A stretch of DNA of 64,000 nt from Gekko japonicus (Eukaryota), in contig NW_015165268.1 in NCBI RefSeq assembly GCF_001447785.1, positions 532,688 to 596,687 of the forward strand, written 5' to 3'. A program made the position numbers and the translations under genes. The notes under the pieces were generated by a model. That model saw nothing but the letters and a program-made list of their open reading frames with translations. It was not told where the DNA came from and searched no databases. Of the stretch, positions 7,055 through 64,000 are shown piece after piece. Each line of letters opens with the position of its first letter. Position 1 is the stretch's first letter.

Positions 7055-7630
7055 CATGAACAAATATGAAGCTGCCTGTCAGGTTCCACAGCCAACAACT
7101 GTGTAAACGCTTATTGGAAGAGTTATAGATGCATTAACAAAGGCACTGTTAAGAATGGCGTTGCCCCTACAAGCATAATGGGATATAGGGTATTCGTATG
7201 CACCCCCCCTTCCTTAGGCCAATTAGCCACATTCCTGCGTGCAGGAGGAGCCCCAGGACGTTAGAGCCGAAGCTGAGAACCGAAAGCGCTCCCACGGTTC
7301 CCTAGAATCCCAGACACTACATACCACCGACAAGGCCATAGATAAGCAAGCATTATAGAAGCCAAAAAGGAACGCAGCAGTCCTGGCAAGCTAGCACCCC
7401 ACCCCCAACCCTTATGGCAGCATAGCTGACACTGCCTTATACTGAACCTACCCTTGGTCCATCAAAATCAGTATTGTCTACTCAGACTAGTAGCAGCTCT
7501 CCAGGGTCAAAGGCAGAGGTCTTTCACATTACCTACTGCCTGGTGCTTTTAACTGGAGATGCCAAGGATTGAACCTGGGACCTTTTGCATGCCAAGCAGC
7601 TGCTCTACACTGAGCCACAGCCCCTCCCCA
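7055..7630 (-). mobile_element. tRNA-derived SINE interrupted by a solo LTR
   Basis: Minus-strand head ggggaggggctgtggctcagtgtagagcagctgcttggcatgcaaaaggtcccaggttcaatcc has A and B boxes. The tail resumes across the insert (gaagctgcc|ttatactgaa). A related copy lies at about 60820-61162. Confidence 0.75.
7077..7431. mobile_element. Solo LTR (355 bp)
   Basis: Termini TGTCAG...CTGACA. Perfect 5-bp TSD ctgcc at 7072-7076 and 7432-7436. Confidence 0.9.
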
Positions 7631-11994: not shown

Positions 11995-13590
11995 GACTTC
12001 TGGTCTACAGAACAGCAATGGCGGATGCTCTCCCCACAATGGGAAAGGGTGAATTGCACACCAGCGGCCTGGAGGAGTGCCACCTCAAGTGACACCCCCG
12101 TGGAGCCTTTGCGACGGGCTCTAGGCCAGAGGGCTTTTGAGGGGTAGCATCTTCGACGGCGTAATGCGAGAGAATTGAGGCTCCCCTCCGCCCCGATGGT
12201 CCAGTTGCTGAGTGGCCTTCAGGCACAAGCTGAACTGACCGGGACAAGCACCGGAGATTGAGCGGAATGGCGAACAACAGAGCGCGATCAGAAATTGACT
12301 GACAATGAACGTGAGTTCTGGAAAAACGGAGTAGTTTGAAAAGTGACCGCAAAGAGGGACGCCTCTTATGTGAATGAACGGATAATGGACACGAAAGGGG
12401 AGAGGGGAGGAAATAAAGCGAAAGTCAGAGTCCAAAACCAGAAGAGGGAGCAGATGTCTACAAACTCCTGGCAGATATGCTTAAGCCGGTGATGGAACAG
12501 CTCGATGGTATTAACCAGCAATTGACCGTAATGAATAAAAACTTTGCAGCACAGCAGCTTCAGCTGAATGAAACAGGGAAAAAAGTGGAGCAGGCAAACG
12601 AGAAAATTAAAGAGATAGACACCACAAGCAAGAAGTTGAAGAAAAGGTTGGGAGATGTGGAAATGAAGCAGAATTGCCAAGAGAATCGAGTTATGCAGCT
12701 GCAGATGGAAAAAGCCAACATGATTCTCAGGTTTCAGGGAGTTCCTGAAATGGATCGGGAAGACTTGAAGAAGGTGCTCAGTGAGATTATCGCTCCAGTA
12801 ATGAGCTTAACAGCGGAAGAGCTTGTAAACGAAATGGCGTTTGCCTATAGGGCATACTCCAATTACATTAATAAAAATAGTCTACCTGGAGAAATAGTGG
12901 TCAGGTTTTCAAGAAGACAAACTAGAGATGCCATTCTGAAAGCAACATCAGCAACTCCACTGAAAATGGGAAATGTAACCATTAAAACTTTAAAAGACAT
13001 TCCATTTGAAATCAGACAAAAGAGGAAAAATTACAGGGACTTAATTTCTTTTCTTCAAAGTAATGGAATTTCGTACAGATGGGCGGTCCCAGAGGGTGTC
13101 ATCTTTAAGATCAACGATAGAAGAGAGAAGATAGATTCCACTTTTAAAGCTAAAGAATTTTTAAAACGTCAGCTGGGGACAGATGATGAGTCCAAAGTAG
13201 GAGAATCGGTCTAGTGACTCTGCTACCTCGGGAATGGAAGAGGATTCTGCGGCAGAAAAGGGTGCAGGACCTGCCAGAGTGGTATACGATATTAGAGACA
13301 GAAAGCCGAAGTAAAGGCAGAAGGACTTGGAAAAGGGCCTTTTGAAGCGAAGAATAAGTAGATGATCAGAGACTTCTCTCATAACAACTAACAAAATAAC
13401 ATATAAATAGCGAATTGTTATAAGCAAGAATTCTACAAATATATTGTGATAGTAAAACTAATTGTACTAACATTTTTACTAACAGTGAAAAGATCTCCTC
13501 CTCTTGGGGTTTTAGTTTAGTGTGGTTTAATTTAGTTTCCTTTATCCTTAGTTGTAGTCCCTTCCCTAATATTTCTTTGTAGTTTTGGTA
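11995..13590 (+). mobile_element. ORF1-only L1-derived retroelement (half-L1/HAL1-like), copy A
   Basis: CpG-rich 5'UTR starting gacttctgg...caatggcgg (YY1-like), ORF1 at 12477-13214, then a short AT-rich 3'UTR resembling that of copy B. No ORF2. The 3' end abuts a Sauria SINE and no TSD is visible. Confidence 0.75.
12477..13214 (+). CDS. L1 ORF1p-like RNA-binding protein (coiled coil, RRM, C-terminal domain), transposon-encoded; open core with probable frameshifts at both ends
   Basis: Heptad-rich N-terminus, LRFQGVPE RRM start, PGEIVVRF, DIPFEIRQKR, YRWAVPEG. An acidic/basic tail continues in another frame to TAA at 13312-13314. Out-of-frame ATG at 12385. Confidence 0.85.
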   Translation: MLKPVMEQLDGINQQLTVMNKNFAAQQLQLNETGKKVEQANEKIKEIDTTSKKLKKRLGDVEMKQNCQENRVMQLQMEKANMILRFQGVPEMDREDLKKVLSEIIAPVMSLTAEELVNEMAFAYRAYSNYINKNSLPGEIVVRFSRRQTRDAILKATSATPLKMGNVTIKTLKDIPFEIRQKRKNYRDLISFLQSNGISYRWAVPEGVIFKINDRREKIDSTFKAKEFLKRQLGTDDESKVGESV

Positions 13591-13591
13591 A

Positions 13592-13913
13592 GTAAAGGTA
13601 AAGGTTTCCTTGCTCGAAAGCCAGTCGAATCGGACTCTAGGGTTGTGGTGCTCATCTCCATTTCAAAGCCGAAGAGCCAGCAATGTCCGAAGATGTTTCC
13701 GTGGTCATGTGGCCGGCATGACTAAACACCAAGGTGCACGGAACGCTGTTACCTTCCCACTGAAGTGGTCCCTATTTATTGCTTTTGAACTGCTTTCGAA
13801 CTGCTAGGTTGGCAGGAGCTGGAACTAGAGACGGGGGCTCACTCCATCATGTGGCAACTCAGGTCTCAAACTGCTGAACTACCGACTTTCCACAGCCTGC
13901 AGTTCAGCATCTT
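13592..13913 (-). mobile_element. Sauria SINE
   Basis: (ACCTTT)n tail seen as aaaggtaaaggt. Diagnostic body ggtcatgtggccggcatgactaa...gctgttaccttccc...ctgctttcgaactgctaggttggcaggagctg. Confidence 0.93.
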
Positions 13914-14449
13914 AAATAAGGGATTGCAGGTATTGCTAAAGGAAGAGTGGGAGGTTGCAAAGGCATTGAATGAAAATGTTCACTTCTTTTTATTTTGGAA
14001 AATATCTGCTGTTTTGGAGAATGCAGCCAGAAGAAGTCAAATATAAGTGATAACAGATTAAATTTTAGGGAGAACAATCAAATTTTAAAAATATCAAAAT
14101 GCAATCCTAAATAGAGTTACAGCCTTCTAAAACTATTGCTTTCAACAGCAATCTTACTGATCGCCCATCAAGCCTGAAAGTAAAAGTGTTGCTGCTGAAT
14201 GCCAGTCCAGTTCAAAACAAAGCATCCCTCATCCAGGACTTAATACTGAGTGGGGAGGCTGACCTGCTATGTATCACAGTGATCTGAGTGGGTGAAGAGG
14301 GAGAGGTGGCTCTCTTACACGTTTGTGTTCCCTCCCCCTATGCATCATCACCCTCGGCTTGCTGGGGTGGCGGTGGCTGTAGTTTATTGGGATTCTGTGG
14401 CACTCACCAAATGCTTTGTTAGCAATAGCCCAAATTTTCATTCTATGTC

Positions 14450-33619: not shown

Positions 33620-34104
33620 ACTATGAAGGAGCAAGAAAAGATCCTTTAGTGTAAGGATGTGCCACTGGTGACCAAGATCAAGATAATTCATACTATAGTA
33701 TTCCCCATTACTATATATGGGTATGAAAATTGGACAATGAAGAAAGCAGACAGGAAGAAAGTTGTTCCCTTTGGGATGTGGTGTTGGAGAATAGTTTTAC
33801 TCATACCATGGACCATCAAAAAGACAAATAAGTGGGTTCAAGATCAAATCACCCCTGAACTCTCTCTAGAAACAAAACCAACCAAACTGAGGTTATTGTA
33901 CTTTATTCATATCATGAGAGAACAAGACTCATTGGAAAAGAAAATAATGGTAGGAAAAGTTGAAGGCAGCAGGAAAAAGGGAAGACCCAATGTGAGATGG
34001 ACTGACTCAATCAAGGAAGCCATGGCCTTCAATTTACAAGATCTGAGCACAGCTGTTAATGACAAGATGTTTCAGAGGTCATTAATTCATAGGGTCACCA
34101 TAAG
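33620..34104 (+). mobile_element. RTE (BovB-related) ORF 3' fragment
   Basis: TKIKIIHTIVFPITIYGYENWTMKKADRKK...MWCWR...GKVEGSRKKGRPNVRWTDSIKE. Confidence 0.93.
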
Positions 34105-35094
34105 GGTGTTCTGTTGTGCTCTGTGAAGAACTAAGTTTTCTTTTTGTTTTTATTATCTGCTATCTGCTCTTTTGGACCTAATGGTTTAGATTTTGGCTTT
34201 GTTTAGTTTCAAGTCAGCTGTCTTGGCAGGCCCAAGCTTCTTTTCTTTTTGGAACATTTTTTTCTATGTCCATAGATAAGATGCTGGGGTTCTGGCTGAA
34301 CTAAGAACAGTGCTGTGGCTGTCCTCCACTGCCCAGAGAGTTTCATCTTATTTTTAGTTTTATTATCTCTGCCAGGTGTTTTGCTGGCTGGTAGCTATAT
34401 TGTTAAGAAGGGAGTTAGTTATAGGCACTTGCTGTTTTGGCTCCCTAAATTCTTCTTAAAGTAGACTTCAATTAAGGCTGACACCAATGCAAACGTCAAA
34501 GTCTCTTGCTTAGAGAGCTGGCTATAAAGCCGGAGGGGGGGGGTAAATTCTGCCTTGTACAAGAGATACTTTTCCTTTGTATTCCTCCCCTTTAAGCGAA
34601 GAGTTTAACCTTTATTTCCTCTTTTTAAGTTCTTAAGCCATAGTTTTAAAGTTTTAATTTATGTTTTTAAGGCTGAATTACTACCCCTGTGGCTAGTTAA
34701 AAAGCTGATCAATGACTTGCTGATTAATGACTTGCTAGGGTGTTGTCTCAAGCAGGCTGGGAAACTCTTGAAAGCAGTGTGGGTCAGTGATGATAGTGTA
34801 GAACTGACGCTACACCCTCAGGCTTGCTGCTGCAATAACTATTTTATAACAATTTTATAATAATTCTATAACAATTTTAACAAACAAAAAATAACATACA
34901 AGACCAACTTGGTCAAATTTGGTTCCCTCAGTTTTTGTCCTTTCCTAGTACCACCATTATTACTACACAAGTGGAGACCCGCAAGAAACATGCGGGATGG
35001 TTATCCTATTCCTCACGCCTTTGCTTCCTCCTGTCTCCCCCTACCTCTCTCAAACTCTTTCTCCCTTCTGCCCCCCCTATCTTTCTCTCTCTCC

Positions 35095-36772: not shown

Positions 36773-37760
36773 TAATTTATATCCTGCTCTTCCCGCTTGG
36801 GCAGGCTCAGGGCGGCTTACAGGAGAGATATATAACAAAGGAGTTAAAAACACAGCATTTAAATAAGCAAAACCACATCATATAAAACCATAAGTGCCAG
36901 TAATATAGATGTCAAAGTGCTAAAAAAAATGGTGGCTGTGTGCTCTCAGCATCCAGACGGTCGGCCGCCGCCACAGTCTGGGCTCCTGCCAGGCTGTTGG
37001 ATATTAAATTAAGTTAAATCCGTGCTGATGTTAATGTTGGAGCCAGGGCTGTAACATTAGGGTAGCACCAAAGCCTGGTGGAAGAGCTTCATTTTACAGG
37101 CCCTCTGGAACTGTAAAAGGTCTCACAGGGCCCTGATGTCATCCGGGAGCTCATTCCACCAGTACGGGGCAGCCACAGAAAAGCCCTCATCATTGCTAGC
37201 CTGGCTTCTTTAGGGCCTGGAAGGGTCAAACAATTTTGGGACCCCAATCTTAGGGCTCTCTGGGGGACATGTGGGGAAAGGCGGTCCCTTAAGTAAGTAG
37301 GTCCCTGACTATATAGGGCTTTAAAGGTAAGAACCAGCACCTTGAACCGAATCCGGTATGCTATAGGCAGCCAGTGCAGTGCATTTAGGGAAGGCTGGAT
37401 GTGCTCCCGCATGGGGAGACACAGCAACAGCCTCGCCGCTGCCTTCTGCACTAGCTGCAGCTTCTGGATTTGGGACAAGGGCATCCCCATGTAGAGATGA
37501 TACCAGGTGATACAGATGTTAAAACAAAGGAAGATAACTTTAGTTTTTTGGCAGCCCAAACATATATTATTGCAAGATCTCTTGATAAAATTTATGAAAA
37601 ATTAGATGTGTTAACTTCAGACAGCCTTCACAACAAGAAGCAAGAGAAGGGAGCAGTCAGTGGGCCCTTAGATTCTTTTATAAGTATCCACAACTAGGAA
37701 CCAAGATGAGCCAACAAAATTTGATTTTTAAATTAAGTAAATTTATTTCTGAAATCTTCC
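36200..37760 (+). mobile_element. Probable LINE (RTE-X-like) 5' end / ORF1 relic interrupted by L2
   Basis: KQSRLEDFFGIETKNHFEVLD (resembles the N-R-F-x-x-L ORF1 motif) before the L2, and FLAAQTYIIARSLDKIYEKLD after it. Confidence 0.4.
36742..37500 (-). mobile_element. L2 LINE 3' fragment with (TAA)n tail
   Basis: YMGMPLSQIQKLQLVQKAAARLL...LHWLPIAYRIRFKVLVLTFKAL..GPTYLRDRL. Confidence 0.93.
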
Positions 37761-39725: not shown

Positions 39726-40954
39726 GACTTGGGAAGCAGAGGCAAGAACAGGAGCCACCTCCAAAAGGTATGGTTAATCTCCTCCCCTCTCTGCACCTGC
39801 TTTATTGGCTGGCCCTGGTGTACCAGCTGAAGCCACAAATGACTAAGCAGTTATGCACCACCTAGATCCCCACACCCAATGTCAATATAAAGCAAATGGA
39901 TTCAGACTGGTGGAAATGGACTGTGGGGTTGACATATCCATTGTAGATGGATCACCTGCATTGGGAAAGTGGTGTACCAAGACTGGCATGGTGAAATCAG
40001 TATGATGTTATAGAAGGTGTATTTCAGTTGGCAGAGAGTCCAAGGGTAATCTGTATGGACGTGTAACAGGCTTAAAAGTTTACTATAGGAAGGAGACTAA
40101 AGGGTGAGATAAGGGTAGCACCTAAACCCACTTACCTCTCTTTTTTTTAATTCCCCAGCCTGGTGGGAAAGAGCCTCACATAGCAACTGTCCCATCCCAT
40201 GATGAACACTGTAATAATATTACCAATATTTAGTGATTCCACTGCACTGGAAACTAAACATGATCCAAGCCATTAGAATCAATGCCTTTCCAGTGAATGA
40301 AGGTCATTTTCAAATTAAACAAAGGCTCCTATTGGGCCAAGGACTGTAACAGTAAATATTCAGGTAGCACAACTAAATGCAAAGTTTTTGGGGGAGGTAT
40401 TGTAGCAGGAGCACCTGAAATGCAGGACTTGGCTGATGAATTGTAAATTCAGAGGTAATAGCTGGGCAAAAATAAAATGAATTATACAAAGGTATGTAGG
40501 CTGAAAAGGTGATTTAGCTAAATTGAGACTAAAACTTGACAGAACCAAGTCTGGTTAGTATTAGAAGGCAAAACATCAAAGAAGTTAAGAATATGTGGTC
40601 AAACTGGCCAAAGTTCAGAAGTTAATTCCTAGGGACCCTCTGCATGAATAAATGCTTTAATGTAGACATGAAAGTAAGAGTATCTTGGAGAAGATATGAT
40701 CTTTTAATATATATAACTTTTTATTGCATTTTATATACTACATCCTAAAGGAAGGGGGGGAAAGGGGAGTGATTAAAACTAACACAAAAGATAAGACAAG
40801 GATCGTATTTCAAATGTCACCTAGTTGTATATCAATCCTACCACAATAACAAAGATTGTTTTATCAAAAGGTTAAATTCTAAATAAAGCTGGCTTGAATC
40901 TTAATACTAGACTTAGGTGTTTAATAATCACTTATGTTCTATTGAACTATCCAT

Positions 40955-42582
40955 TTATTTTTTATGTTTCTTCTTCTTGTACTTCAGGTTTAACATCTTT
41001 GGGCCTCTCCTTGGAGGAGTTAGCTTTCTCCTCTGAAGTGTATATTTTTAATACAATCAAACAGAGGCTTTTAGATATTGAGTTTCAAAAACTGCAGCCC
41101 TTTCATCCCCCTGTCTGCTCTTCAGCTTCATTAAGTCTTAAGAATGACGTGGGATGTATTCCCCAGTATTTGTATAATTTGGATAGCCCTAGCCATCGAA
41201 GAGCTTTTTCCCTTGCTCGAGTAAATGCCTTTCCATCAAAACTACTGTATGGTAGGTTTCATAATATTCCTAAGTATGAACGGAGATGTGACTGTGGTTC
41301 AAGCTCTCTTGATTCAATTGATCACATACTGCTGGACTGTTCATTGCATGTATCTGCTAGGGAAAAATGGTTAAACTCTTGGTTGCATGGTAAATATCAC
41401 CTTTCTAATGAAAGAAAATGTCAAATTCTATTGAATGATACAACAGCAGAGATTACAGTGGCAGTGGCTAATTTTTTAGTTGATGTGATAAGAGTGAAAA
41501 ATTTGGGAAACTCCGTTTCATGATTTTATAATTATTCCAGTTTTTTAGTTGACTGTGTCACTTTCTGTTTCTGATTTTAATGTTGTATATGCTATTAAAG
41601 GTTTATTGATTGATTGATTGTACTTCAGGTTAGTTCTAAGTATTTTAGGTGCAGCATCCCCTTTCTCCGAATCTGAGGTTTCCGAAGTACTTCTAGAGCT
41701 TCTTGAGGTGTCATCTGGTTCTCCATCACTAGTTCCCTCCTCTTCCATGTTATCCACAATTTTTTTGCCATCATTACTCGGGCTTTGTTGCTGTTTCAAA
41801 AAGTCTTTTGCTTTTTGCACAGAGTCAATTTTGTTCTTCTTATCCTTATAGTTGAATACCAGTCCCTCTGGAAAAATCCAACTAAAGGGGATTGAATTGT
41901 TGTGGAGAAAGAAGGTTAAATCCTTGTATTGTCGCCTTCGCTTCCGCATCTCGAATGGAATGACCTTTAGAATTTTTACTTCATCGTCTTTGACCTTCAA
42001 GACTTTTCCAGATGTAGCTTTCAAAAAGTTGTCTCTAGTGGATCTCTTAGAGAATTTCACGTATATTTCTCCAGGCAGATTATTTTTCTTAATAAAATCT
42101 GGATATGTTCGATATGTCAAATCTAAATCATTTTTCAACACATCTTTTTAAATGTCTGTCATTGGTGTTAGCACTTCACTTAAAATTATTTTCAGATTTT
42201 TTCCTTTTTGCTCAGGAATACCTTGAAAGTGTAAGACATACATTGATCTTTCCATTTGAAGTTGTAGGAATTGGTCTTTATCTGCAGCACTCTCTTTTTC
42301 CACTTCCTCCAATTTTTGTTCAATGTTTTTGGGTTTTGTTTCAACTTTCTTGATGGCTCTGTCGGTTTTGTCTGCTCTTTTATCCATCTGTGTGAATTGC
42401 TTTTGGACACCATCCAGCTTACTGTTAATGTTAGACATCTGCTCCAGCAGGGGGTGCAGTGCCATGGCCAGCATATTGGGAAAGTCAGCAACTGCTTCCT
42501 GTGTCTGGGTGGGAGTTGTTGGTATGGTGTTTCCTGTGAGAGGTTTCCTTTCCAGCACCATTCTTATCCCTCTACCAGACAT
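40955..42582 (-). pseudogene. L1 ORF1p-like ORF of copy B (about 328 codons reconstructed)
   Basis: ORFs 42148-42582 and 41545-42141 are in one frame, separated by a single TAA. Removing the nested insert restores the C-terminus ...KILRTNLKYKKKKHKK* (stop at 40955-40957). Confidence 0.88.
40991..41617 (+). mobile_element. 5'-truncated RTE-X-like LINE nested in copy B
   Basis: 14-bp TSD ttgtacttcaggtt (40977-40990, 41618-41631). Open frame with RRAFSLAR...GRF...ERRCDCG...HILLDC zinc-knuckle C-terminus. Ends attaaagg plus (attg)n tail. Confidence 0.88.
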
Positions 42583-43556
42583 TGTTTACACAAGAAGAAA
42601 GTGTTTGGATTTAAAGTCAAAGTTCTACAATTTAAATATGCTTTGGATTAATTTGCACCTTTCAGTCTCGTTTACAGTCTCACACGGTTCGTTCCGCTTA
42701 TTCTCTTTTCTTTTTCATTCAAAGACCATTCAGTTTTTTGGGGGATATCCCCAGTTCTCCCCCACCCGCTGCTTATTTCATGAGCTAGCCATTGGATTTA
42801 GAGATTTAGCCATTTATATAGGGGATTGCTTAACTCACTGTTTTCATGTTTGAGTAATTGTAGTAGAGTGGTCACATTAGATCACTCGTCCGCTTGTCGG
42901 GCAGCAAGCTCTTATTGCCAAAATGGCTTCACAGCAGCAGGATCTCTCGGGGTAGGGAGAGCCTCAATCCCTCAGCTGTCACCATGGGAGAGGCTCTCCT
43001 TTGCACCCTGGGCTGGAAGTTCCCTACAAGGACTCCGGAGGGGCGTATCTGGGCGGAGCCCCTCCTGTCTGTCACAACTCAGCGCGTCTCCTTCAGGAGC
43101 TCAGTGGGACGTGTCCGAGCTTCAAGTTGCCAAAACTGGAACTCTGAGAAGATATGATCTAAACAGAAGCAGAAGAGTCAGCTATAGGGACAAGGTGTAA
43201 TTGAACTTCTGACCTACTCATTGATAACTGCAGGGATATTTGCTTAAAATATGGTCCGTCTAGACATGGAAGTCAAAGCAGTTAGAGTGGGATAAGGGCA
43301 GAGAGATACCCTACCAAGAAATGTCTCAAACACATTATAACATTACAAGGAAGCACTGTATCAGCTTCCTCCTTGCCAACCCTTAGATCACTTATGAGTG
43401 AGGTAATAGGACATGTTTTGTACACTTTTACTTGATTTGCTTTTGTTAGTGTAGTGTACTACTGTGCTTCATAAATGTATTTGACTCGTAAACATGTCCT
43501 GCATGGTTAAATGTGTCATGCCTTCAGTAGAATCCTGAAAATAACCAGTAACATTA

Positions 43557-46729: not shown

Positions 46730-47007
46730 CTGTGGCGACCTCAGCAGGGTATAATGACACAGAGTCCACCATTTTCTCCAGAGGAACTCATCTCTGCTAC
46801 CTGAAGAGCAGTTGTAATTTCCTGAGTGATCTCCAGCCCTCACTTGGATATTGGCAACAATTGTTACCCAGGAAGAAATGACTGGTTTGGAGGGTGGAGT
46901 CTATGGCATTGTACCTGTCTGAGGTCCCACCCCTCCTCAAACCTCACCCTCTTCAGGCTCCATCCCTCAAATCTCCAGAATTTCCCAATCTGGAGTTGGC
47001 AACCCTA
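46730..47007. mobile_element. 'tagggttgcc' family non-autonomous transposon
   Basis: ggagggtggagtctatggcatt...ttggcaacccta. Confidence 0.75.
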
Positions 47008-47307
47008 TCTCCTTCCCAGCCAAGCATCAATCTGCCATTTTTGGCCCCTCTGATTTTAGCTTTGCATCTCCTCCCCCCTCCCTCCTGGAGATCAGTTGTA
47101 ATTCTGAATGATTTCCACCCCTCTCCTGAGATTGACAACAGTGGTTCCCCAGAAGGTCACATGGAAGGTTTTGGCCCAGGAGAGGGACGGATTGGGGGAG
47201 CAGCAAATGGGCACGAGCACACCAGTCTGATCCAGCTGAGCCTGCGGATTGGGCACAGTGCAAAATGTCTCCACAAGTGGTTGCAAAAAAATGCTGTATT
47301 TCTGCCC

Positions 47308-48205
47308 TCGCAGTGGGGGGTGGTAAGCAGTGGGGTATCACAGGGATCAGTACTTGGTCCACTGCTTTTTAACTTCTTCATTAATTATTTGGAGTTGGGA
47401 GTAAGCAGTGAAGTGGCTAAATTTGCGGATAATACGAAGTTGTTCAGGGTGGTGAAAACCAGTGAGGATTGTGAGGCACTCCAAAGGGATCTGTCAAGGA
47501 TGGGAAAGTGGGCGTCAACATGGCAAATGGGGCTCAATGTGGCCAAGTGCAAGGTGATGCACATTGGAGCCAAAAATCCTCAATATAAATACACATTGAT
47601 GGGGTCTGAACTGGCAGAGACTGATCAAGAGAGAGATCTTGGAGTTGTAGTAGATAACTCACTGAAAATGTCGAGACAGTGTGTGACTGCAATAAAAAAG
47701 GCCAATGCTATACTGGGGATTATTAGGAAGGGTGTTGAAAACAGATCAGCCAATATCATAATGCCCCTATATAAAGAGGTACTTTTCTCCCTTTCTCACA
47801 ATATAAGAACTCATGGGCACTCAATGAAATTGCTGAGCAGTCGGGTTAGAACAGATAAAAGGAAGTACTTCTTCACCCAAAGAGTGATTAACACATGGAA
47901 TTCACTGCCACAGGAAGTGGTGGCGGCTACAAGCATGGACGGCATCAAAAGGGAATTAGATAAGCATATGGAGTAGAGGTCCATCAGTGGCTATTAGCCA
48001 CAAGGTATAGCTAGGGGCTCTGGGGCAAGTGATGCTCTGTCTTCTTGGTGCTTGGGGGGGGTCAACAGTGGGTGGGCTTCTAGTGTCCTGGCCCCACTGG
48101 TGGACCTCCTGATGGTACCTGGTATTTCTGGCTACTGTGTGACACAGGGTGTTGGACTGGATGGGCCTTTGGCCTGATCCAACATTGGCATCTCTTATGT
48201 TCTTA
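47308..48205 (+). mobile_element. CR1 LINE RT/3' fragment with internal deletion
   Basis: SGVSQGSVLGPLLFNFFIN...KFADNTKL...KCKVMHIG...ERDLGV. Jumps from MPLYK directly to EVLFSLSHN. 3'UTR matches 18963-19190. Confidence 0.95.
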
Positions 48206-62689: not shown

Positions 62690-64000
62690 CTACCCACCCA
62701 CCAGTACGGGCTCAGATGTGAATAGGGCTTTGAGGTGGTCAAACATCTCCTGACATGCATTAGTCCAGTTCAGTTTAGCCCCGGGGCGGGTGCTTTCTGG
62801 CCCCTTCCCCTTAGCCTGAAACAAATCCGTGAGCAGTAAACTCACCTGGGTGAAGTTCGCGAAAAAGGACCGGTAGAAATTGGTGAACCCGAGGAATCGT
62901 TGGAGTTGCCTCCAGGTTTGAGGAGGTTCCCACCCCACAATATCCCGGACCTTGGCCAGATCCACCTCCAACCCCCTAGGGGAAATGTGGTATCCCAGAA
63001 AGTCTATCTCAGTACAATGGAAGTCACATTTCAACAGCTTGGAAAACAGTTTGTGCTTGTGTAATGTGTGCAGGACCTCCTGCACCAACTTCATGTGAGA
63101 AGGTTTATCAGGGGAATCTATCAACATATCATCTAGGTAAACAATGACACACTTGAACAAATGCTTGTGTAACACGTCATTGATCAGGTTCATGAGGACC
63201 CTTGGAGCCCCCTGAAGTCCGAAAGGTATCACTTGATACTCAAACTGTCCCAATGGGGTGTTAAACACCATCTTATACTCATCCCCTTCCTTTATACAGA
63301 CCCAGAAATAGGCATCCCTGAGGTCAAGCTTCGAGCTTGGCCGCTTTGGCCAGGAGATCCTTCATGAGGGGCAGGGGGTATGCATTAGTGGTAGACACTG
63401 CATTCAAGTCCCTATAGTCCGTACATAGCCTCAGTCCTCCATCTTTTTTTTTTCCTGGAACAATACAGGGGCAGCAAAAAGGGAGGACGCGGGATGAATG
63501 AAACCTCAAGCCAGGGTTTTGTCAATAAATTTATGCAATTCTTCCTTTTCCCATGGACTCATGGCGTACAGTTTCCCTTTAGGCAACTTCTGGCCCGGAA
63601 TCAACTTGATAGCACAATCTGAGTGTCTGTGAGGTGGCAATTCGTCCACCTCCTCTTCCTTAAACACCCGTGTCAGGTCCCGGTGCTCCAGGGGGATGGA
63701 AGTCAGCTCCTCCTTGGCTAGGCAAGCTTTCATCGGTTCATCGAGAGGGGGGGCCACAGCCCCTCCCATATGTGTGTTTGGCATTTAGGTGAAATAAACT
63801 TAATTACGCACTCATCCCATGGAATATAGGGGTCGTGGTCATGAAGCCACGGGCTGCCCAGCACTAGAGGGAAATGAGCTGCTGGAGTGATGTCAAAGGG
63901 CTGATGCTCCCAATGCACTCCTGCCCCCATCCATAAAGGCACAGTCTCATATTTACAAGAGTCTTTCATAGCTGACCCATCCATTTGGGTAAACACAATG
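62690..64000 (-). mobile_element. Ty3/Gypsy (sushi/chromovirus-like) pol fragment: protease end and RT, frameshifted
   Basis: [46 protein letters not shown]...YPLP, PFGLQGAP, VIVYLDDMLI, FLGFTNFYR. Truncated before RNase H. Continues beyond the window. Confidence 0.95.

Follow-up and report, generated by a model that had tools for sequence, protein, structure and literature searches.

A 64,000-nt stretch of the Gekko japonicus genome (the window) contains two decayed retroelements whose leaders carry a similar hairpin, which raises the question of what RNA element their families have kept, how far it extends and what it may be for. The hairpin, first noted in a preliminary description of the window, lies at 12139-12187 on the plus strand (copy A) and at 43000-42955 on the minus strand (copy B). 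The sequences and places given for it proved correct, and the described stems were reproduced by RNAfold, with z-scores of -1.85 for A and -3.08 for B. In both elements, each with a single L1-type ORF1 and without ORF2, the distance from the 5' end to the hairpin is about 145 nt.

Element A (11995-13590, plus strand), now decayed, belongs to an ORF1-only (HAL1-like) L1 family whose whole copies measure about 1.8 kb. Its 5' terminus (11995-12024) combines a start that we take to be ETS-like with a YY1-like ATGGCGG. The start of ORF1 was lost through a 130-nt internal deletion, and the remaining L1-type frame (12477-13214, with coiled coil, RRM and CTD) matched PF02994 at E 7.5e-4, under the curated cut-off. 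The last ~45 nt are missing; their place is occupied by a repeated element (13594-13915, plus strand), presumably SINE-like judging by its start. Element B (40718-43144, minus strand) is a decayed copy of a second ORF1-only family and terminates in AATAAA and an A-rich tail. Its broken ORF1 (41545-42582) is about 42% identical to that of A and reads 328 aa in an intact copy of the family (L032); a 627-nt insertion (40991-41617) lies inside the ORF1 end.

Families A and B are multi-copy, with 3444 and 382 first-look candidates, figures that count candidates only; 40 of each were scored. Further families (C, D, E, F, I and J) were reached through elements in the flanks, together with single copies of others, and a sample of 170 kb of unselected DNA yielded one new leader. 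The first 230 nt of these eight ORF1-only or ORF1-defective families are 44-78% identical in pairwise comparisons (55% for A versus B). An AATAAA end at about 1.8 kb is present in the majority lines of A, B, D and F, in a separately aligned 3' part for C and in one copy of E. By tblastn, the ORF1 of most HAL1-like loci is 27-40% identical to that of ORF2-bearing L1s. Candidate target-site duplications of 7-19 nt, a few of them doubtful, were seen in 22 copies of A, D, E, F, I and J and in none of B. The features of HAL1 are thus found together (an L1-type ORF1, no ORF2, an A tail and target-site duplications) and, judged by A tails and candidate duplications, the HAL1-like families, I and J included, are L1-type insertions. 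As they hold no ORF2, they were probably mobilised in trans by L1 ORF2p.

Two of the amplified families, I and J (602 and 573 candidates), have a defective ORF1. The family I majority line gave no tblastn match, and its copies gave a single ORF1 match of 34 aa (E 0.008) in one of 24 loci. The copies of this family (L201-L224) are young, about 95% identical to their majority and 1.35 kb long, and consist of an L1 leader and 3' end; from this make-up, family I reads as a polymerase II type, SINE-like L1 derivative. Family J keeps only the first ~50 ORF1 residues, within the coiled coil, and has lost the RRM and CTD; in its copies (L305-L329) the 5' terminus has also changed and the donor-like site is duplicated. 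A common origin of I and J could not be rejected (p-AU 0.118).

Several other observations were made on these copies. In families A, D, F, I and J, AATAAA is separated from the A tail by a small GC hairpin, possibly a 3' recognition element (at the 3' ends in L003-L026, L161, L182, L203-L218 and L310-L328), which B, C and E lack. HAL1-like elements are often found inside one another, or directly adjacent to one another or to L1s (L018, L055/L120, L091, L142, L153, L174, L183, L252, L317, L326), which suggests a shared target preference. Single copies of two more families were seen at L326:2279-2520, with an extra helix inserted in one arm (H3, below) and a GTAAGT donor-like site, and at L317:2106-2304, and a 5'-truncated F-like copy lies inside the ORF2 of an autonomous L1 (L122:1440-2130). 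Large internal deletions that keep both element ends, many with short microhomology, number 42 in the 197 loci of families A-J.

The two leaders had been regarded as not alignable outside a block of ~60 nt. They are in fact alignable and structurally homologous over ~230 nt, and the hairpin is predicted to be the tip of one arm of a larger fold, in which a small 5' hairpin precedes a four-way junction that spans about +60 to +215. The layout is common to the families: a bulged 5' hairpin (H0), then a closing helix that encloses arms H1 and H2 and a long irregular arm H3, H2 having 7 bp and a 7-nt loop in most families. H0 is predicted in all families with a sequence that differs between them, and was left out of the pair counts. 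In copy A the predicted elements are H0, a bulged stem (12026-12051), and the junction (12061-12211), comprising the closing helix (12069-73 with 12200-04, extendable outwards), H1 (12074-12098), H2 (12102-12122, 7 bp with a 7-nt loop) and H3 (12126-12199), whose distal part (12139-12187) is the hairpin first noted. In copy B, on the minus strand, the junction is predicted at 42931-43075, with the closing helix formed by 43067-63 and 42942-38, followed by H1 (43062-43040), H2 (43036-43016) and H3 (43012-42943), the partner hairpin being the distal part of H3 (42955-43000).

Within the hairpin, family alignments changed several details. The stem of copy A had been written with AGCAUC, but its A-G mismatch is private to 2 of 31 family-A copies, 27 of which read AGCCUC, so that the distal arm consists of an AGCCUC/GAGGCU stem, a UY bulge, a 2x2 purine internal loop and an inner stem. 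The bulge itself is kept as proposed, but not always as UU: among 28 parsed B copies 21 have UC and 5 have UU. The supposedly unpaired loop is itself structured (the 2x2 purine loop, an inner stem of 3-4 bp and an apical loop of 4-5 nt), and the loop motif AYGGYG, thought to be kept, was found in one of 30 B copies and in no C, D or E copy. The downstream CCCCGA, also listed as kept, turned out to comprise a bulge and one side, the 3' strand, of another helix.

The stability of this fold was examined on single sequences. The majority lines of families A-F folded with z-scores of -2.9 to -6.1 (100 dinucleotide shuffles each; -5.6 and -5.4 for those of window copies A and B), the junction being partly misfolded in some single folds of D and F. 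Over the whole domain, the window copies folded no better than shuffles (z = -0.10 for A and -1.39 for B). The contrast between majority lines that fold and decayed copies that do not suggests that selection worked on active source copies and ceased once a copy had inserted. Differences between strands were small: the sense strand was more stable in 6 of 8 junctions, the antisense strand had the lower z-score in two families (D and F), and by folding energy alone the two strands are barely distinguishable.

Covariation was more informative. The null distribution was obtained by swapping whole 3' columns among pairs that share the majority base, with one row per family to respect relatedness. 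For a MAFFT-only alignment with 7 family rows, 270 of 305 cells were paired, compared with 245.1 ± 3.8 in 20,000 column swaps, and 15 of 44 pairs were doubly changed versus 7.4 ± 1.9 (P = 0.00025). A model-fitted alignment of 11 subfamily rows gave 442 of 479 paired cells versus 387 ± 6.5 and 23 of 44 doubly changed pairs versus 9.8 ± 2.1, outside all 20,000 swaps. When 35 copies, chosen from 172 as nearest to their own family majority, were aligned with MAFFT, 87.1% of the cells paired, against 80.7% after shuffling and 42-58% in slid controls, but the 16 doubly changed pairs did not exceed the shuffled value of 19.0. These figures should be read knowing that the structures were picked by eye on the same sequences and that the 35 copies are those nearest the majority, both of which favour pairing, and that some mismatches in the pair counts are register errors. 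Six of the seven positions of H2 undergo exchanges between A-U, G-C, C-G and U-A, while the AGCC/GGCU pairs of H3 hardly vary in sequence. G-U and A-C cells stood at 28:13 at the family level and at 61:68 among rare copy-level changes (p = 0.02). The compensatory substitutions first seen between A and B hold at the family level, and covariation survives deep sampling, in support of the cis-acting RNA element proposed at the outset. We conclude that the fold is very probably real and selected as RNA.

These data also bear on a cause at the level of DNA: palindromic factor sites, DNA folded as a cruciform or in single strands, or pairing that merely accompanies a GC-rich internal promoter. The domain does lie in the likely internal promoter, its antisense strand folds nearly as strongly, and several H2 loops contain Y-GNA-G, a stable DNA triloop. 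However, the triloop is missing from the loops of A, I and J, the domain folds far better than shuffles of equal dinucleotide content, G-U cells outnumber A-C cells, and the arms have almost wholly changed in sequence with pairing, arm length and topology kept; such a cause is quite improbable. The more specific idea that a palindromic factor site explains the hairpin fails because the inner stems and two other arms, as well as the spacer, change sequence completely and remain paired. Marginally less probable again is a general shielding role, in which a CpG-rich leader would be folded away from ZAP, piRNA or dsRNA sensors: the leader is indeed CpG-rich and highly paired, with bulged stems, but CpG is no more paired than GpC (0.74 versus 0.79) and shielding would not need a fixed junction geometry.

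Is the junction peculiar to ORF1-only elements? To sample autonomous L1s, PF02994 was used to pick 29 ORF1 loci, many of which lead on to ORF2 frames, and the DNA upstream of 20 of them was examined. Nhmmer sequence profiles of HAL1-like leaders missed the autonomous leaders, and the link was made by covariance models only. Three groups of autonomous leaders, P, Q and R, have the same layout and lead into ORF1. In group R (13 copies) 93.0% of the cells pair and 12 of 32 pairs are doubly changed; in P plus Q, 219 of 237 cells pair over H2 and the base of H3. RNAalifold kept only 7 pairs of a mixed P/Q/R alignment, since the arms are out of register across the groups. A model trained on HAL1-like leaders was on target, weakly (E 0.03-8), at 6 of the 29 autonomous loci, and at one more later. 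Conversely, the best 14 of 59 matches of a model built from group R only were on target and on the sense strand; it covered all six P/Q loci and, with E up to 10, was on target at 17 of 24 HAL1-like loci, partly so at 2, and missed 5. Matches of the reverse model coincided with boundaries set independently by the other model. Group-R matches were also found in 13 of the 20 upstream stretches of PF02994-picked L1s, 2 of the 13 coming from group R itself, and six of the seven missed stretches lack the downstream motif too and look 5'-truncated or interrupted. All these E-values are rough, as calibrations were short, and GC-rich structured RNA attracts such models. Taken reciprocally, the covariance models indicate that the autonomous L1s of Gekko japonicus carry the same junction. 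The unit is thus larger than the hairpin first described and extends beyond the ORF1-only elements.

A comparison is offered by the anole. Its clade-1 L1s start with GACTTCCGGTG N8 ATGGCG, and the first 120 bp are the most conserved (PMC5381506). The terminus of element A agrees with this one; the GACTTCCGGT...ATGGCG start is present in families A and F, and the autonomous groups combine an ETS-like start with a leader of more than 1 kb. The Gekko leaders thus resemble anole 5'UTRs in their GACTTCCGGT...ATGGCG-type start, their length and the higher conservation of the 5' end, but the arms differ in sequence and the anole keeps a true GT donor. By eye, the first 400 nt of seven of nine anole consensuses in the supplement of the same work (L1_AC1, 3b, 7, 8, 11, 12 and 14) show a junction-like layout: a 5' hairpin, a closing helix with family-specific complementary strands, two short arms and one long irregular arm, with a GT donor-like site near +300 to +365. 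No such layout was seen by eye in the first 400 nt of AC9 and AC15. As an uncomputed reading by eye, the anole junction is a lead and not a test. A protein search with the intact family-B ORF1 reached no other species, with no match at E 0.001 among 1155 candidates.

What could such a domain do? The junction is at a fixed distance from the 5' end and not from the AUG: ORF1 starts ~340-450 nt after it in HAL1-like elements and ~0.9-1.0 kb after it in autonomous ones. Families I, without ORF1, and J, without RRM and CTD, both keep the junction. This retention, together with the tie to the 5' end, argues against an IRES for ORF1. Translation control of ORF1 more broadly, through an IRES, shunting or autoregulation in a structured leader, would agree with the several upstream AUGs in the leaders and with the loss of the tip loop when ORF1 is lost. 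Nevertheless, the persistence of the junction in family I and the roughly threefold variation of its distance to the AUG disfavour this proposal of the preliminary description for the domain as a whole, and we consider it improbable.

A second feature follows the junction. About 100 nt downstream of it lies a U1-complementary, splice-donor-like site, GTGAGT, found at +310 to +344 in all eight majority lines (12311-12316, about +320, in copy A; 42833-42838 on the minus strand, about +310, in copy B). In the element bodies GTRAGT occurs once in 9,544 nt, and its chance of occurrence is ~0.005 per 50 nt. In 50 of 60 autonomous copies (L245-L304) the site reads AAG-Y-TAAGT, which we take to be U1-complementary from the sequence of U1 snRNA; position +1 is C in 36, T in 14 and G in none, so that it cannot be a normal donor there. 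No sign of splicing was found: none of the 42 internal deletions in the 197 loci was a GT-AG spliced copy (the junction in L009 keeps GTGAG), and no splice joints were seen in three RNA-seq runs mapped on a family-A copy. The reads on family A came in both mate orientations, without a start or stop peak in the domain. This pattern, with no joints and no end peaks, fits read-through, and no independent transcript is shown by it; two runs mapped on an autonomous leader gave 27 reads, too few to interpret.

Splicing has been described as a dead end for L1, and the conserved 5' donor of human L1 has been explained by a RUNX3 site (PMC5860796); by analogy, the donor-like site of the Gekko elements may be a DNA factor site. 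A 5' splice site can also block attenuation by Restrictor and so protect transcripts (PMC12211998). A U1 site that is kept but unused points to co-transcriptional control of the leader, and a junction fixed just upstream of it would most simply be part of the same control. On this basis, the explanation we favour, with a probability of roughly 0.4, is that the junction is a co-transcriptional element licensing full-length, unspliced transcripts. The four-way junction would fold on the nascent L1 or HAL1-like RNA and be read by a host protein, perhaps through the constant 7-bp H2 and a purine-rich loop at the base of H3. The bound factor would help polymerase II to make the full-length, unspliced transcript, junction and U1 site together countering early termination. 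The need of every new active copy to keep its internal promoter explains why the region is kept, but not why it is paired.

The tip of H3 behaves differently from the rest of the junction. A 2x2 purine loop is present in all six ORF1-bearing families, as GA/GA in A, B, C and F, AA/AA in D and GA/GG in E. It is closed in all 25 copies of family J and remodelled in family I, 21 of 24 copies matching one new form. The autonomous L1s, with an ORF1 only 27-40% identical, have another tip. The tip may therefore be a lineage-specific add-on tied to the element's own ORF1. A loop that is kept with ORF1 and lost in two ways in I and J favours such an ORF1-linked role, and keeps alive the main rival of transcript licensing, namely a packaging-like signal for RNP loading, by which ORF1p assembly would start from the junction and H3 tip, or L1 proteins supplied in trans would recognise the RNA through them. 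The change of the tip with ORF1 lineage, the loss of the purine loop in I and J, the different tip of autonomous L1s and the nearly invariant AGCC/GGCU pairs all fit this proposal. It is weakened by resting on two ORF1-defective families whose single origin was not rejected (p-AU 0.118), and by the expectation that families needing ORF1p in trans would keep its binding site rather than lose it. L1 ORF1p is, moreover, regarded as largely sequence-nonspecific. RNP loading thus remains a serious but distinctly less probable explanation than transcript licensing, and the link to ORF1p suggested at the outset is possible for the tip and not for the whole domain. Natural variants, ORF1-bearing versus ORF1-defective, already separate the junction from the tip.

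The hairpin had not been recognised as a named motif, and the whole domain, searched against Rfam 15 along with seven loci, likewise matched no family, with chance-level matches only (E 2.7-5.9). In kink-turns, invariant tandem G-A pairs lie beside a 3-nt bulge, and in SECIS elements they form part of an AUGA/GA quartet; both were discarded, since at the purine loop family D has AA/AA and family E has GA/GG, and the bulge is 2 nt long and 3-4 bp away. HDV-like retrotransposon ribozymes are nested double pseudoknots whose first helix is made from the element's 5' end; here no Rfam match was obtained and, on inspection, the invariant 5' end has no partner common to all families. The Alu domain of 7SL/SRP RNA forms a structured region at the 5' end of an RNA that is mobilised in trans, and some H2 loops of the Gekko families contain its UGUAG; the Gekko domain nevertheless has another topology, no Rfam SRP match and a polymerase II type start, and is also present in autonomous L1s. 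In the 5' leaders of retroviruses (TAR, packaging signal and major splice donor of HIV), a multi-helix RNA with bulged stems lies close to the cap and precedes a U1 site, an arrangement that is an analogy only, with no sequence relation seen and no Tat-like protein in the Gekko elements. A broader proposal we hold as tentative: clade-1 L1s of squamates would have used a TAR-like four-way-junction switch, paired with a U1 site, to license transcription since before the split from the anole, its tip co-evolving with ORF1p. If true, it would give vertebrate L1 leaders their first conserved regulatory RNA domain and would explain the success of half-L1 and non-coding derivatives.

Self-cleaving RNAs are known in LINE 5'UTRs (PMC11620745, PMC3185411), and the twister-sister-like ribozyme of the human L1PA 5'UTR is likewise a structured RNA with an internal loop (PMC11620745). 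The Gekko domain is a four-way junction of ~150 nt in which inspection of the alignment found neither of the catalytic loop strands, GCUCAA and GCUAG. No Rfam ribozyme matched, the lack of a read start or stop peak in the domain is weak evidence in the same sense, and cleavage in the leader would strip the promoter from new copies, yet the copies share a common 5' end. Self-cleavage, also considered initially, is thus disfavoured for the domain as a whole, and a ribozyme is the least probable of the explanations weighed here.

We found no description of this fold in the literature searched, although subscription papers and Repbase reports may hold one. Like mammalian HAL1, the Gekko families are ORF1-only L1 derivatives with a poly(A) tail and target-site duplications, but they belong to a squamate-type genome and form at least eight families, two of them ORF1-defective; the HAL1 passages of PMC5753468 do not mention leader RNA structure, and HAL1 is absent from PMC5203782. 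A mouse Maelstrom study used a structured L1 fragment and four-way junctions, and its relevant passages describe no such leader (PMC4373776). For the anole leader, PMC5381506 gives sequence motifs only, its RNA-structure passages dealing with the intergenic region and the 3'UTR. L1 leaders are treated as DNA promoters, often replaced in mammals and conserved in lizards; PMC5381506 speculates on a conserved host factor. The Gekko domain is, apparently, an undescribed structured RNA domain of squamate L1 leaders, real as a fold and probably acting as a cis-acting retroelement leader. Kept over families only 44-78% identical, in autonomous and parasitic elements and, by eye, in the anole, the fold offers a concrete RNA basis for leader conservation and a short list of mutations with which to test it.

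The window holds other features of interest. An Rfam tRNA match at 7554-7624 on the minus strand (44.4 bits) is either a gene or a tRNA-derived repeat. Frames resembling retroelement pieces lie at 33737-34126, 37089-37490, 46903-47976 and 62690-63271, which we take to be from RTE, L2 or CR1, and a Gypsy-type reverse transcriptase.
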